Part shown: positions 9,536 through 13,528 of the stretch, piece by piece
Numbering within the stretch: the stretch's first letter is position 1
How the letters are laid out: every line of letters begins with the position of its first letter
Virus record (IMG/VR): IMGVR_UViG_3300045970_000455
Span: 11,866 to 75,865 of that record
Strand: one strand, 5' to 3'
Length of the DNA stretch: 64,000 bases
DNA from: a virus
Translations under genes and position numbers: made by a program
Notes under the pieces: model-generated
Databases searched by the model: none
What the model was told of the DNA's origin: nothing
The model's input: only the letters and a program-made list of their open reading frames with translations

Positions 9536-9865
9536 TTATACAGCGAAACTCTGTCCGCAACCACATGTTGAGCTGCTGTTTGGGTTTTGTATTACAAACT
9601 GAGAACTCATTAGTTCTTCTTTATAGCTTACAGTAGATCCTACCAAATATTGATAGCTCATGGCATCCACAATAATAGTGACTCCGTCTTTTACTATTTC
9701 TGTATCATCCTCGGCTACTTCTTTATCAAAAGTAAAACCATAAGAAAATCCCTGGCATCCACCACCTTGCACAAATATCCTAAGTTTCTGTTCGGGGTCG
9801 CCGTCATCTATTATGAGGTCACGTATTTTGTTTATTGCCGAATCTGCGAATACGATTGGTTCCAT
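9536..9865 (-). CDS. erpA: A-type Fe-S carrier ErpA/IscA
   Basis: [42 protein letters not shown]. Confidence 0.93.
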
Positions 9866-10239
9866 TAACGTGTTTTCCTATAATCTGCTATGGCTGCTTT
9901 AACAGCATCCTCTGCCAATATGCTACAATGTATTTTTACGGGTGGTAGGGCTAATTCTTCCGCTATTTCTGAATTTTTAATAGTAGCTGCTTGACCTACA
10001 GTCTTGCCTTTAACCCATTCTGTCACTAAACTGGATGAAGCAATCGCTGAACCACACCCATAGGCCTTGAACTTTGCATCAGTAATGATTTCATCTTCTA
10101 CCTTTATTTGTAGGCACAAAACATCTCCGCATGCCGGGCTCCCTACCATTCCTGTTCCTACAGTAGGATCTCCCTTTTCAAACTTTCCAACATTACGAGG
10201 ATTATTATAGTGATCCAACACTTTTTCGGAATATGCCAT
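9865..10239 (-). CDS. iscU: Fe-S scaffold IscU
   Basis: [42 protein letters not shown]. Confidence 0.97.
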
Positions 10240-10820
10240 TATAGCCTCCCGTAAGCATTACCTGTCAGTGGTTCGTTTGTTCCGTGATACGCTTTATCGT
10301 CATATCCGTGTATAGGAGATAATATACCTTCTCTTTCAGTCTTTGATTGTGTGTTATCTGTGAATCGATACATTTGGTCTGGCATAACACGCTTAAACCA
10401 TTCTGCTACCATAGGGCGCACATCACGGTTAGGTTCCGTGTCTTCCAATATACGCAACTCATCCGAGAATGCATCATCCTTGATAATATCTTGCAAGAAT
10501 ACTTCTGCAACACACGCCGGAATAGGTCTTGACATAATCTCTTCCACTAAGTCAAAATCTTCGTTTGATATAGGTAGCTTATGAATGGCTTCCATAACCT
10601 TTATTTCATTTATACTTTCTATTGTAGCTTTTAACTCTGTATAATCTTTACGCAGTTCTTTTTGTAAAAGCCCTTTTTTCGCTTTCGGAGTAGATGGGTC
10701 GCCAATCATATCTACATATTTGTCCATGCGTTGTTGTAAGGCGTTTAGGTTGGCTATCTTCTTTTTAGATAGACTTTTATCGTTCATCCCCTTCGGTAAT
10801 AATAGTTCTAAGATTTTCAT
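10239..10820 (-). CDS. Probable virion head-associated protein
   Basis: MKILELL start and charged composition like other MK(I/L)x(E/D) proteins here; in a late operon. Confidence 0.5.
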   Translation of the reverse strand: MKILELLLPKGMNDKSLSKKKIANLNALQQRMDKYVDMIGDPSTPKAKKGLLQKELRKDYTELKATIESINEIKVMEAIHKLPISNEDFDLVEEIMSRPIPACVAEVFLQDIIKDDAFSDELRILEDTEPNRDVRPMVAEWFKRVMPDQMYRFTDNTQSKTEREGILSPIHGYDDKAYHGTNEPLTGNAYGRL

Positions 10821-11278
10821 TATGAATACACTATCACAACAATACCACTACCACCGTTTCCACCCAGCGCTGATGCACCGCCCCAAATGTAACCGTTGCC
10901 GCCACCACCGCCACCTTGATTAGTTAAACCTGCTGCGCCAGGATTAGCAGCACCACTATTGCCCCCATCTCCGCCGCCTGTACCTGCTGTACCACCCAGG
11001 TGAAATCCATTATCGCCGGTACCGCCACCACCGCCACCGCAACCTGTAAAAATATATCCTACCGCAGTGGATAAAATAGACATTCCTGCTCCACCATTCT
11101 TGCCGCTACCAGCAGATACGGCGCCACCGCCCCCGCCACCGTATTGATTTTCTAAACCAAGACCGCCATCGTTACCTTGGCCTACGTAGCCATCACCGAC
11201 GGTGCCGCCATTAAAATAAGGTGTTCTGCCGCCACCACTACCGCCTGGTTTTCCGCTTATTCCTGTACCTGTTGTCAT
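10820..11278 (-). CDS. C-terminal half of a glycine-rich tail-associated domain
   Basis: GGSGGG, GQGNDGG, NQGGGGGG, terminal GGNGGSGIVVIVY; own GGAG RBS at 11285-11288. Confidence 0.8.
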   Translation of the reverse strand: MTTGTGISGKPGGSGGGRTPYFNGGTVGDGYVGQGNDGGLGLENQYGGGGGGAVSAGSGKNGGAGMSILSTAVGYIFTGCGGGGGGTGDNGFHLGGTAGTGGGDGGNSGAANPGAAGLTNQGGGGGGNGYIWGGASALGGNGGSGIVVIVYS

Positions 11279-11291
11279 TATTTACTCCGAA

Positions 11292-12284
11292 TTAGTTCAC
11301 TGTGTCGGGTTCTTTCTTAAGATTATGACTTAACAAACCATTGTTCACGTATGTGTGAGCGTCCTTGACGGTGATCTTGATTACTTCGCCACGATTGTAT
11401 TTTGAAACACTAACTACCGCATTCGGAACTGATGGTCCTATTAGCATATCACTTGGTTTGAGAAGCGACAGTTGAACCTGTGTACCATCAACCATGAACA
11501 TCGGATGATTGAACGATGCCGTTAGTGTCCTGCCGTTTTCCATTGTCAGCACCCAACGATCGTTGACATCTGGTGTAACTGCCTCAACCTCGAACGAACC
11601 CCATACACCTGTTGTTTCGTGTCTTGTCCACACATATTGACCTGCTTGAAGCATGTCTGCTCTAACCCATGACTGATTGGCAAGAAGAATCATTTCCCAT
11701 GGCGCTGGGCAACCGCCACTGCCGCCACCCCCGCCACCCCCGAGGCCGCCACCAGATACCACTGTTGCTACATCGCCACCGCCACCCCCGCCGCCATATG
11801 CTATAGCGGTACTGTTAAACGAGGATGATACACCATCTGCCCCCTGAACGTTGAGCCCTGATGCTGCGCCGCCTGCGCCTACGACAATCGGTATTACGGC
11901 CCCGGGCGTAACGCTTAGTGTTGTATGAACATAACCACCTGCTCCACCTCCACCTCCACCTTCTAGTGTACCTATACTGCCACCTGATCCACCGCCACCT
12001 ACTGTTAAAACTTCAACTGATGTAACCCCTGCAGGAACAGTCCAACTTTGGCTAGATGTAAATGTCTGGCTAAAATATTTAGATGCTCCGTGGAAGCTAT
12101 CAAGACTAAGTGCTCCGCTTGTTGGTACAAAAGTGCTTGCACCGTGTGGTGATCCTTTTATAAACGACTTCACGTATGTCCCATTACGATACAGTTGTGA
12201 CAAAGAAACGGGTGTGCCAGGTACTGAAAATTCAGTGCCTATAGCAGATAATGATATTGAGTTTGGATATACCGGTAATGTCAT
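11292..12284 (-). CDS. Tail-fibre-tip-like protein: N-terminal half of Gly-rich domain plus C-terminal Hint domain
   Basis: gp38-adhesin-like start (ISLSAIGTEF..SLSQLYR), TFTSSQSWTVPAGVTSVEVLTVGGGG, then GG-CPAPW...TASFNHP...HTYVNNGLLSHN. Confidence 0.85.
   Translation of the reverse strand: MTLPVYPNSISLSAIGTEFSVPGTPVSLSQLYRNGTYVKSFIKGSPHGASTFVPTSGALSLDSFHGASKYFSQTFTSSQSWTVPAGVTSVEVLTVGGGGSGGSIGTLEGGGGGGAGGYVHTTLSVTPGAVIPIVVGAGGAASGLNVQGADGVSSSFNSTAIAYGGGGGGGDVATVVSGGGLGGGGGGGSGGCPAPWEMILLANQSWVRADMLQAGQYVWTRHETTGVWGSFEVEAVTPDVNDRWVLTMENGRTLTASFNHPMFMVDGTQVQLSLLKPSDMLIGPSVPNAVVSVSKYNRGEVIKITVKDAHTYVNNGLLSHNLKKEPDTVN
11322..11711 (-). other. Hint (intein-like/BIL) autoprocessing domain, 130 aa
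   Basis: Cys1, block-B His (NHP), terminal His-Asn followed by Leu; no endonuclease. Confidence 0.85.
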
Positions 12285-12287
12285 GTT

Positions 12288-12653
12288 TTATCCTAATAAC
12301 GGGCGAATAACTTCTACCCAACTAATCGTATTCTCGTCCCACTTATACACTTTTCCATCTACAGGCAAATCAACAGGTGCTGCCCACTGACATGTATTTT
12401 CATTTAATACCCAACTATTATATGGTTTTGGCGGAATAAATGCATCCCTATCAGCATCATACTTAAATCCTATGCCTGCATAGTTCTTCCTAAATGGTGT
12501 TCCACCCAACTTATGCTCTCCGCATAATGTGTTGTAACTTGTTTGGAACCATGTGGCAGGATCGCCTACGGCACCAGAATCTATAAAATCTTGTTCAGCA
12601 ACAATAACCTGTGTAACTATATTATTGTTATCTATACATGCATAATGGCTCAT
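12288..12653 (-). CDS. Conserved partner of Gly-rich tail proteins (putative assembly chaperone)
   Basis: QTSYNT, FRKNYAGIG, DAFIPPKPY.SW, YKWDE motifs. Confidence 0.75.
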   Translation of the reverse strand: MSHYACIDNNNIVTQVIVAEQDFIDSGAVGDPATWFQTSYNTLCGEHKLGGTPFRKNYAGIGFKYDADRDAFIPPKPYNSWVLNENTCQWAAPVDLPVDGKVYKWDENTISWVEVIRPLLG

Positions 12654-12672
12654 ATTTAAAATCCTCTTATTG

Positions 12673-12680
12673 TATTTATC
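12673..12680 (-). promoter_or_regulatory. T4-late-like promoter GATAAATA
   Basis: About 20 nt upstream of ATG 12653; recurrent motif (see findings). Confidence 0.7.
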
Positions 12681-12698
12681 ATATTAGACACCACAGCC

Positions 12699-12722
12699 AA
12701 AAGAAAAGGGACCGTAGTCCCC
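12699..12722 (-). terminator. Intrinsic terminator
   Basis: GGGAC-TACG-GTCCC followed by TTTTCTTTT on the minus strand (UNCG loop). Confidence 0.85.
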
Positions 12723-12739
12723 TATCTTTTTAGTTTTGT

Positions 12740-13105
12740 TTAGATACTAAACTGTTCAGCTACAGACTTAGGTACTAAATCCATATTGAGTTCTTTTGCC
12801 TTACCGATAACAGCCGGCAAAACAAAATACATGCCCGGCATTGCAACTAATGCAGCAAACGATGTTGCCTTCACGAGTTCTTTTGCCTTTTCATTTGCTG
12901 CTGCGATGTCCTTTGGTGTAGCATCACCTGTCATTGCTTTTTGATACACTTTTGTCATTTCTTGAGCATTTGCATACTCCGTGGTAACAATAGTTTGTAC
13001 CTTTTCAAACACATCTTTTGCATCCTTTGGTGTCTTTGGGATTGCATCGAACATGTCGTTGATTGATTTGAGAAAAGCCTGAGGGGTTTTGATTGATGTA
13101 AACAT
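12740..13105 (-). CDS. Helical protein, phasin-like N-terminus and LETM1-like C-terminus (tentative)
   Basis: Amphipathic Ala/Lys-rich helices; ANEKAKELVK..ALVAMPG..VLP....KELNMDLVPKS; own promoter, structured UTR and terminator. Confidence 0.45.
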   Translation of the reverse strand: MFTSIKTPQAFLKSINDMFDAIPKTPKDAKDVFEKVQTIVTTEYANAQEMTKVYQKAMTGDATPKDIAAANEKAKELVKATSFAALVAMPGMYFVLPAVIGKAKELNMDLVPKSVAEQFSI

Positions 13106-13225
13106 TTTATTTCCTTTATATGAGTGCCACTATTGGCCACTATGCTATGTTCTGCCTCACTATGAGCACAGACTTATGCAGTATATTACTTATCAAAAAA
13201 TGTTGCAACCGCACATTTTATTGGT

Positions 13226-13528
13226 TTAATCCTTAGTCTTTTCAATCTTATCGTCTTTATCCGCACCGCCCTCTTCCAAATATACCTTTGCTTGATGCGC
13301 TCTTGTAGTGTCTCTCGTATCTAAAAACTTGTTTAATGTTTGAGACCCTGTACCGTATGCAAGATATGCGATAAAATAATCAACGCTCATTCCACCCAAT
13401 AAAATAAGTTTCCACATAAACACTGTTGCGGCTATTGCTACCACCATAGCAATAATCCTTGCATGTGAATATTGGCCTGTGGCATTATCCTTTATTGAGT
13501 CATTTAGGATTTTTACTACTCTATTCAT
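13226..13528 (-). CDS. Putative holin-like two-TM protein
   Basis: TGQYSHAR followed by two hydrophobic segments and a charged C-terminal tail. Confidence 0.55.
   Translation of the reverse strand: MNRVVKILNDSIKDNATGQYSHARIIAMVVAIAATVFMWKLILLGGMSVDYFIAYLAYGTGSQTLNKFLDTRDTTRAHQAKVYLEEGGADKDDKIEKTKD

Follow-up and report, generated by a model that had tools for sequence, protein, structure and literature searches.

Two adjacent genes on the minus strand, ORF A and ORF B, encode the two halves of a single Gly-rich domain, and the first of them ends in a Hint domain (Table 1). The window, by which we mean the whole stretch of 64,000 nucleotides that was analysed, comes from an uncultured pond phage. 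The sequence-only reading had described a first half running through poly-Gly into a Hint domain with Cys1, His-Asn and +1 Leu and then a stop, followed 13 nt later by a second half with its own GGAG ribosome-binding site and the N-terminus M-T-T-G, and all of these elements are in place. No promoter or terminator was found in the spacer between the two genes, and the stop codon of ORF B shares bases with the ATG of the following gene (TAATG). The gene upstream of ORF A belongs to a family, phrog_7759, which in other phages lies directly 3' of fibre genes ending in a Gly_rich_2 domain.

Table 1. Features of the split locus, with positions counted from the first letter of the window.
Feature	Position	Strand	Description or basis
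Upstream gene, phrog_7759	12288..12653	-	121 aa; 3 nt before ORF A
ORF A	11292..12284	-	330 aa: Gly-rich N-half, poly-Gly, Hint, 9-aa tail, stop
A residues 1-70, conserved N-terminal module MTLP.YP..ISLS.I..EF...	12075..12284	-	alignments to unsplit homologues
A residues 76-189, first half of Gly_rich_2	11718..12059	-	PF21722 positions 3-118/226
A residues 173-191, Gly run ahead of Cys1	11712..11768	-	alignment and complex model
Hint domain, A residues 192-321	11322..11711	-	130 aa; Cys1, block-B S-x-x-H, terminal His-Asn
Cys1 of Hint, A residue 192	11709-11711	-	ORF translation
Asn321, end of His320-Asn321	11322-11324	-	ORF translation
+1 Leu, tail LKKEPDTVN and TAA stop	11292..11321	-	Lys at +2 and +3
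TAA stop of ORF A	11292-11294	-	
Intergenic spacer A/B	11279..11291	-	13 nt; read directly from sequence
GGAG in spacer A/B	11285-11288	-	6 nt ahead of ORF B ATG
ORF B	10820..11278	-	152 aa, second half of Gly-rich domain
ORF B ATG	11276-11278	-	protein begins M-T-T-G
Downstream gene	10239..10820	-	193 aa, no known family; translationally coupled to ORF B

Residues 1-191 of A match the PF21722 profile over positions 3-118 of 226 with 62.3 bits (cut-off 24.3) and phrog_2295 over positions 540-705. ORF B alone reaches 9.8 bits against PF21722 over positions 103-225, matches phrog_2295 over positions 692-846 (E 1.8e-10), and is found by BLAST in the C-terminal parts of full-length family members with E values of 1e-35 to 1e-27. 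The PF21722 profile is covered by the two ORFs with an overlap of about 15 positions and neither polypeptide contains the whole domain; the earlier claim of one domain split over two genes is confirmed. The N-terminal module of A is common to the unsplit homologues P0003-P0006 and P0009, and alignments of residues 1-191 with unsplit homologues show 45-48% identity. The closest counterparts are single-chain Gly_rich_2 proteins such as P0003, in which PF21722 positions 4-224 lie in one chain, and P0004, to whose residues 1-185 and 168-342 A(1-190) and B(4-151) align, respectively; both are colinear with A(1-190) at 48% and with B(4-151) at 39-40% identity (BLAST with SEG and composition correction switched off), but carry the domain in one chain and without a Hint. 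In B only M-T-T is new, and residues 4-152 are colinear with the family up to the final GGSGIVVIVYS. With its GGAG ribosome-binding site, its coupling to the next gene and all family motifs kept, ORF B looks expressed. The Gly run at A 173-191 repeats the motif G-x-x-GGSGGG, which also occurs at residues 8-17 of B, and is probably the linker of the Hint cassette.

Stops close all three frames between the Hint tail and the ATG of ORF B, and therefore a single sequencing indel cannot account for the split. A frameshift or sequencing error joining A and B was ruled out on the same ground, and ribosomal bypass of the gene-60 type was ruled out as well, since there are no matched take-off and landing codons leading into the frame of ORF B.

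The AF2 model of the Hint (pLDDT 94, pTM 0.85) has the predicted fold of the Hint (Hedgehog/intein) superfamily. Foldseek returned 65 PDB matches at E<=1e-3 with TMq of 0.62-0.86, and all among the matches listed are inteins, BILs or Hedgehog; the top matches (TMq 0.79-0.86) comprise BIL2 of BUBL1, mini-inteins of DnaB and the C. thermocellum BIL (2LWY), all of them at E 1e-10 to 1e-8, as well as Hedgehog. The superfamily residues are present as Cys192 and an S-x-x-H that aligns with the T-x-x-H of NpuDnaB. The end of the domain matches the TIGR01443 intein_Cterm profile with 17.8 bits (cut-off 15.6) and carries the terminal His-Asn of class 1 inteins, but the +1 residue is Leu instead of Cys, Ser or Thr, and instead of an in-frame C-extein a tail of nine residues is followed by TAA and closed frames ahead of B. 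The entire 130-aa Hint lies on A and is thus not divided over both products as a split intein would be. The C-terminal His-Asn without a +1 nucleophile is that of type-A BIL domains, and only nine residues follow Asn321, so that the sterol-recognition region of the Hedgehog Hog domain is absent. By sequence the Hint stays below the cut-off of PT-HINT PF07591 (21.5 versus 27.7 bits) and is weakly similar to 2LWY (phmmer E 0.084), which it matches by structure with Foldseek E 2.7e-8 and TMq 0.84. A tblastn search with ORF A matched only inteins of Corynebacterium phage terminases, at 32% identity, one with ORF B gave no match owing to the low-complexity filter, and AF2 of full-length A without an alignment was uninformative (pLDDT 37).

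The Hint is a member of a large phage family. As a query it finds 567 library proteins at E<=1e-3, with E 6e-42 for the closest of them, which places the assignment far beyond chance. PHROGs holds no family for this Hint, and no description of the phage Hint family was found in the papers of the searchable library. A poly-Gly N-flank is typical of the family, and many hosts are phage tail proteins, with Phage-tail_3 in 15/61 besides GpJ and PB4 spike domains. Of 170 non-redundant family domains, 78 (46%) stop <=14 residues past His-Asn, and each of the 61 short-tailed members (61/61) keeps Cys1, the block-B His and His-Asn. The +1 residue is Ser or Thr in 11/170 (6%) and Cys in none (0/170), and Lys stands at +1 or +2 in 162/170 (95%). 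The invariant His-Asn together with this near-universal Lys points to chemistry in cis that involves the tail of the cassette itself, and judged by its sequences the family behaves like type-A BIL domains. In the tree the Hint of the window is sister (support 0.98) to that of P0121, a protein with a tail of 10 residues, and is nested in clades of which 5/5 and 17/17 members are short-tailed, with weak deeper support. Because it groups with short-tailed, C-terminal members, tail and stop came with the cassette and do not reflect decay in situ. When ORFs 3' of short-tailed members were compared by BLAST with the C-flanks of long-tailed members, one marginal match only was obtained.

The sequence-only reading had proposed to model the two halves together. 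In the complex model the predicted structure has A(1-191) and B interlocked as a single domain, with an ipSAE of 0.93 versus 0.00 for the best of three controls, agreement in >=95% of contacts between runs and a partner pLDDT of 90-91. The calibration of the ipSAE mark, reached by 58 of 80 complexes of solved structure but by only 2 of 110 mismatched pairs, is a rough one, own alignments having been used here. About 420 contacts are predicted, with B 142-152 placed against A 73-75, 91-98 and 134-135, and the Gly run A 173-191 makes no confident contacts. A high score is expected because the halves of one domain were modelled with alignments of full-length homologues; it thus shows likeness to the intact fold and is not proof that the pair binds.

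The arrangement is a singleton across the 149 representatives of the family and the 78 viral loci searched, where no second split of a Gly_rich_2 domain was found, and genes 3' of other Hint-terminated proteins start with MA, MI, MN, MG, MP, ML or MK and share no conserved N-terminal Thr, Ser or Cys, so that the further genomes with a split and such a residue which the sequence-only reading had suggested looking for did not emerge. A word-index search for stand-alone B-like proteins of 83-266 aa gave none at E<=1e-5, at scores that composition bias lowers for Gly-rich sequences. Searches for relatives of the locus with A or B alone found none, megablast of 10000-13500 against GenBank phages gave no match, and the phage itself yielded no close relative. 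Hint-capped first halves at gene-split points are present in at least two unrelated gene families, that of the window and a second one (L018), and this recurrence could mean that the Hint has a role for split genes beyond self-removal. In the second family the split recurs at an identical point in close relatives that lack the Hint, and distant relatives are fused; split halves thus exist there without a ligase.

We consider it fairly probable that the Hint removes itself and that the two chains assemble non-covalently. A short-tailed mini-Hint cassette of the C-terminal type, consisting of poly-Gly linker, 130-aa Hint, Lys-bearing tail and its own stop, would have inserted into a poly-Gly loop midway through a Gly_rich_2 gene of tail-fibre type and would have cut it into the cistrons A and B. 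Following translation, the Hint would form the Gly191-Cys192 thioester, and cyclisation at His-Asn would release the 9-residue tail. The thioester would then be resolved by a tail amine, either the alpha-amine of Leu322 or a Lys side chain, in an attack that would correspond to type-A BIL 'splicing', or by water, so that the Hint would be gone and A(1-191) would remain with or without a 9-residue scar. Being presumably unable to close the fold alone, A(1-191) would pair non-covalently with the separately translated B, whose last strand GGSGIVVIVY would insert beside the first strands of A to give a two-chain Gly-rich domain.

The thioester chemistry without a +1 nucleophile, on which the sequence-only reading had built, is sound in principle: such Hint domains still make the N-terminal thioester, which is open to attack by amines, with precedents in type-A BILs and in BIL2 of Tetrahymena BUBL (PMC4031507, PMC8616854). 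Its further proposal was a rejoining in trans, in which the alpha-amine of the N-terminal Thr of docked B, following removal of Met, attacks the Gly191 thioester and restores the domain as one chain, enlarged by a Gly loop of about 19 residues. This we regard as unlikely. The predicted interlocking of A(1-191) with B is in its favour, and as A ~172 and B 4 are neighbours by homology, the alpha-amine of B would be within reach of the thioester, which the flexible Gly173-191 arm could bring to the N-terminus of B. Moreover, BIL domains can ligate via a plain amine and BIL2 of BUBL, the top Foldseek match, conjugates in trans (PMC4031507, PMC8616854), and Hint-capped first halves occur at the split points of a second family. 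However, comparative support is missing: the split is a singleton among the representatives and loci searched, the genes following other Hint-terminated proteins have no conserved N-terminal Thr, Ser or Cys, and close relatives in the second family are split without a Hint. In a reaction purely in trans, the invariant His-Asn and the near-universal Lys of the tail would serve no purpose and would compete for the thioester. It is similarly doubtful that the Gly-Hint-Lys cassette is a portable single-use ligase serving split virion genes, which would keep the Gly thioester on its flexible arm until the second half docks and its N-terminal amine attacks.

The Gly191 thioester might instead acylate a Lys of another virion protein, or an amine or hydroxyl of the host surface, and thereby tether the fibre piece or cross-link it, as Hedgehog and BUBL do. 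The layout, in which a flexible Gly arm leads to a Gly-Cys junction and the Hint stands at the protein C-terminus, is that of Hedgehog and BUBL, to whose Hog and BIL2 domains the Hint is structurally similar; BIL2 moves its N-flank onto Lys of other proteins (PMC8616854), and many hosts of the phage Hint are tail-tip proteins. Such a coupling is nevertheless improbable, since there is no acceptor candidate, the neighbouring genes suggest no partner, the 9-aa tail leaves no sterol- or ligand-binding extension, and the conserved tail Lys is the simplest acceptor, in cis.

We give equally little credence to a decaying gene, in which a recent insertion of the cassette would have inactivated the Gly-rich gene and left A and/or B as non-functional remnants. 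The singleton status of the split would fit such a decay, open frames are cheap in GGN-rich DNA, another locus (L093) shows that Gly-rich genes do break at GGN-type repeats, and the GC3 of the Hint (0.42), the top value among 14 genes compared (0.25-0.38), hints at a foreign and possibly recent origin. Against this, B retains a well-placed GGAG ribosome-binding site, its ATG, all family motifs to the last strand and its coupling, A retains all catalytic residues, the halves are predicted to fit together, and the same DNA is unchanged in a run of a second study.

An assembly or sequencing artefact, which the sequence-only reading had named as a possible refutation, is very improbable: although the region is rich in GGN repeats, which can mislead assemblers, and one low-depth X2 contig joins 11040 to 11721 between two of them, out of frame and found at 80% likeness, a 51-kb Logan contig of depth 15 from a different assembler, which may stem from the source sample, is identical over 10200-12700, identical fragments in the second study include one spanning the Gly|Cys junction, and stops close all three frames. 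The X2 contig was rejected as a Hint-less allele and taken as the Gly-rich gene of another organism.

Protein engineering relies heavily on inteins and BIL domains, and the family described here comprises hundreds of members capping tail-tip and fibre proteins, with catalytic residues that do not vary and a lysine conserved in the tail. The locus is a natural experiment in which a single folded domain is cut in two by a cassette. Whether the Hint only removes itself, ligates its tail or rejoins the two products, the locus shows that Gly-rich fibre domains tolerate two-chain encoding, and it suggests that poly-Gly-coding repeats are landing sites for Hint cassettes; both bear on the reshuffling of phage receptor-binding modules. 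If the portable-ligase reading were true, an unsplit Hint domain would here carry out protein trans-ligation without a side-chain nucleophile.

Among known systems, type-A BILs (Amitai 2003; Dassa 2004; 2LWY; PMC4031507, PMC7664689, PMC7765530) share with the Hint of the window the mini Hint fold, the N-terminal Cys, His-Asn, the lack of a +1 nucleophile and of an endonuclease, and variable, non-enzymatic host proteins. In type-A BILs the thioester is attacked by a free amine of the C-fragment, with cleavage as the prevailing outcome (PMC4031507, PMC7664689), and by analogy self-cleavage or plain-amine splicing would be expected here. They differ in that the similarity to 2LWY and PT-HINT is weak by sequence, the phage family has a poly-Gly N-flank, a near-universal Lys at +1/+2 and often a position at the extreme C-terminus, and the Hint of the window interrupts a folded domain, the second half of which is encoded by a gene of its own. 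The best structural match is BIL2 of Tetrahymena thermophila BUBL1 (6Y75/6TMM; Foldseek E 2.6e-10, TMq 0.84), whose thioester hands its Gly-ending N-flank on to a Lys amine, either in cis or in trans, without ATP (PMC8616854). BIL2 is eukaryotic, shares 16% identity and lies between ubiquitin-like domains, whereas the N-flank in the window is half of a Gly-rich fibre domain with no evident acceptor but the 9-aa tail. The Hedgehog Hog domain (1AT0) is likewise a C-terminal Hint behind a Gly-Cys junction from which an N-terminal cargo is released via a thioester, but it has a sterol-recognition region that the Hint of the window lacks, and the His-Asn conserved here is absent from its mechanism. 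Fractured genes with split inteins (Dassa et al. 2009, PMC2677866) are also phage genes in two cistrons at an intein-type element. There the intein is divided into N and C parts with an endonuclease gene between them, and trans-splicing is possible because the C-extein carries the nucleophile (PMC2677866), whereas in the window the whole Hint lies on the first product, and the second product opens with host sequence following a gap of 13 nt.

The minus-strand gene run of the window (Table) contains a Gly-rich domain that is divided into two genes at a Hint domain, as the sequence-only reading had proposed. ORF A (330 aa) carries the first half, and its residues before the Hint Cys192, A(1-191), match positions 3-118 of 226 of the Pfam family Gly_rich_2 (PF21722; 62.3 bits, cut-off 24.3) and positions 540-705 of phrog_2295, while ORF B (152 aa) matches positions 692-846 of phrog_2295 and, weakly, positions 103-225 of PF21722. 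In full-length relatives the whole domain is on one chain, such as in P0003, which covers PF21722 positions 4-224. A single homologue, P0004, is colinear with both ORFs: A 1-190 aligns to its residues 1-185 and B 4-151 to its residues 168-342. Since a G-x-x-GGSGGG segment of this homologue is aligned by both the end of A and the start of B, either approximately 15 residues were duplicated at the junction or the Gly linker was carried in by the cassette (poly-Gly linker, Hint domain, Lys-bearing tail and its own stop). Only the first three residues of B (M-T-T) are new sequence. All junction elements noted earlier are present, in the order Cys192, a 130-residue Hint domain ending in His-Asn, +1 Leu, the tail LKKEPDTVN, TAA, 13 nt including GGAG, and ATG; stop codons occupy all three frames of the gap.

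Features of the gene run around the split Gly-rich domain
Feature	Coordinates	Strand	Position or remark
1055-aa fibre-like protein, then small proteins		minus	first in gene run
Terminator-like hairpin	12706-12723	minus	between 12740-13105 gene and phrog_7759 gene, upstream of the latter
121-aa phrog_7759 protein	12288-12653	minus	after small proteins, before ORF A
ORF A	11292-12284	minus	after phrog_7759 gene
Hint segment of ORF A	11322-11711	minus	
ORF B	10820-11278	minus	after ORF A
193-aa protein		minus	its ATG overlaps the stop of ORF B
IscU-like and IscA/HesB-like genes	9536-10239	minus	by eye, motifs around conserved Cys residues

The genes of this run are densely packed, no promoter-like or terminator-like sites were found between A and B, and the hairpin suggests that the unit containing both ORFs starts past it. 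The IscU/IscA-like genes come after the structural genes on the same strand, each start overlapping or abutting the preceding stop, and are followed by a DNA polymerase gene. The phage genome is large, because the 75.9-kb IMG/VR record is rated about 20% complete. In eight other phage contigs (L084, L086, L087, L089-L092, L094) the gene for the phrog_7759 protein comes immediately after fibre genes that end in ...GGSGIVI.RY, whereas in the window it immediately precedes the Gly-rich gene; the protein may take part in fibre assembly or act as a partner. Contig L093 (1-470) shows a further rearrangement at Gly-coding repeats: a gene resembling phrog_7759 (77% identity across residues 39-90) breaks off there, and the next ORF, out of frame, has just the C-terminal half of a Gly-rich domain.

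Modelled together, as had been suggested, A(1-191) and B gave a complex score of 0.93 compared with 0.00 for the best of three controls. Among reference cases, 58 of 80 solved complexes but also 2 of 110 mismatched pairs attained this mark, counts that are only rough because own alignments were used. At least 95% of contacts agreed between runs and the partner pLDDT was 90-91; the pLDDT of A itself fell to 63-80 with an unrelated protein in place of B. Approximately 420 contacts are predicted between the halves, the last strand of B (142-152) lying against A 73-75, 91-98 and 134-135. Such a pass is expected for two halves of one domain run with full-length homologues and shows likeness to the intact fold rather than binding. 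In the model B 4-21 but not A 173-191 makes confident contact, which fits a free linker role for the Gly run of A.

A precedent for separate halves is offered by the viral loci L018/L021, in which a Hint-capped protein with a 430-aa N-flank is followed 2 nt downstream by a 583-aa gene. In distant relatives (47-55% identity) the pair corresponds to two parts of single 959-1096-aa proteins, and in closer relatives (76-83% identity) these two genes are also separate, with the break at an identical residue and no Hint, the first ending in ...LE[RQ]Y[RK]N[NS] and a stop. This virion gene family, compared across L018/L095, L097 versus L098, L099, L111 and L115, L125, L127, L131, exists in three states: as one fused gene, as split genes, and as split genes whose first half carries a GGG-Hint-12-aa-tail cassette. 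The Hint-less split state shows that split halves exist there without a ligase. The break is in a Pro-rich linker in this family and inside a fold in the window. As the best reading, we favour with some confidence that the Hint removes itself and that B then complements A(1-191) non-covalently.

For this self-removal, the type-A BIL scheme consists of an N-junction thioester, Asn cyclisation and attack of the freed amine on the thioester, and its products are mainly those of cleavage (PMC4031507); the Hint would follow these steps with its tail amine. Alternatively, the attack on the thioester could possibly be Lys-directed, a variant reported for BIL2 (PMC8616854). By either route the Hint would excise itself and leave a small scar on the host protein. 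His-Asn is invariant and the tail Lys is kept even in four-residue tails, which argues for Asn cyclisation and the tail amine belonging to the reaction of the family.

The proposal that the N-terminal Thr of B rejoins the halves in trans is conceivable chemically and plausible geometrically; however, comparative support is missing, and we regard ligation of A to the N-terminus of B as unlikely. A Gly_rich_2 half beside a Hint was absent from 149 top representatives and 78 viral loci, and a search with A (lengths 181-578 aa) yielded no fused Gly_rich-Hint-Gly_rich form, its sole Hint-bearing match, P0002, having an unrelated N-flank. The window is thus a singleton for this split. Nor was the anticipated Thr/Ser/Cys conserved on genes after other Hint-terminated proteins, which start with MA, MI, MN, MG, MP, ML or MK. 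Coupling of A to a third party, also raised by the sequence-only reading, is improbable as well. A decaying gene is improbable too. An assembly artefact is very unlikely, because a 51-kb Logan contig (depth 15, source sample possibly the same) is identical over 10200-12700 and identical fragments, one spanning the Gly|Cys junction, occur in a second study.

In a tree of 171 non-redundant Hint domains (170 family domains and the window's own) the window's Hint is nested in clades whose members are all short-tailed (5/5, then 17/17; deeper support weak), so tail and stop are ancestral to the cassette and not the decay of an internal intein. Its sister in this tree is the Hint of P0121 (57% identity, 10-residue tail, support 0.98). 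This 872-aa host protein, for which no Pfam family was found, is unrelated to the Gly-rich gene, so the cassette moves between genes. Its N-terminus shows an SGG.DS motif that by eye resembles a PP-loop, and Ser/Thr-rich repeats come after it. The GC3 of the Hint (0.42) is the highest of 14 genes or gene segments (the other 13, all neighbouring: 0.25-0.38) at unremarkable overall GC and is a weak foreign signal. The region is rich in GGN-repeat families; combined with the cassette's poly-Gly N-flank, they offer an obvious recombination substrate.

An exhaustive HMMER search with the Hint returned 567 proteins at E<=1e-3, of which 220 reach E<=1e-10. Among 170 non-redundant domains, drawn from top matches and the 78 viral loci, the domain starts with C-P-[AD]-P and ends with G-[LF]-[LIV]-S-H-N; at least three Gly are among the eight residues preceding Cys1 in 60%, +1 is Ser/Thr in 6% and Cys in none, Lys occupies +1 or +2 in 95%, and a stop follows within 14 residues after Asn in 46%. 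All short-tailed members (61/61) retain Cys1, the block-B His and His-Asn without variation. Their host proteins frequently belong to phage tails (Phage-tail_3 in 15/61, also GpJ, PB4 spike and tail-tip fibre domains). P0124, P0134 and P0143 contain at least two copies of the Hint, either in tandem or near each other, e.g., ...SHN-LVGKG(G)(S)-CPDP....

In class 1 inteins the block-F Asp assists transesterification. In alignment with NpuDnaB, this position is Lys in the Hint (VIKITV versus VFDLTV), which would fit a non-canonical route. No Pfam family reached its own cut-off on the Hint (Intein_splicing 28.4 versus 35.8), and sequence membership in the curated PT-HINT model is likewise not reached (21.5 versus 27.7). 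No published description of this phage family was found among the literature on Hint/BIL domains of phage tail proteins, with most subscription journals outside reach. The AF2 model of the Hint is confident (pLDDT 94) and is structurally closest to BIL2 of the Tetrahymena BUBL1 locus, DnaB mini-inteins, the C. thermocellum BIL (2LWY) and Hedgehog. With type-A BILs it shares His-Asn and the lack of a +1 nucleophile and of an endonuclease, and by these defining features it would work like them. We therefore class the Hint with the BIL type, a kind already known, and the split of Gly_rich_2 is a new instance.
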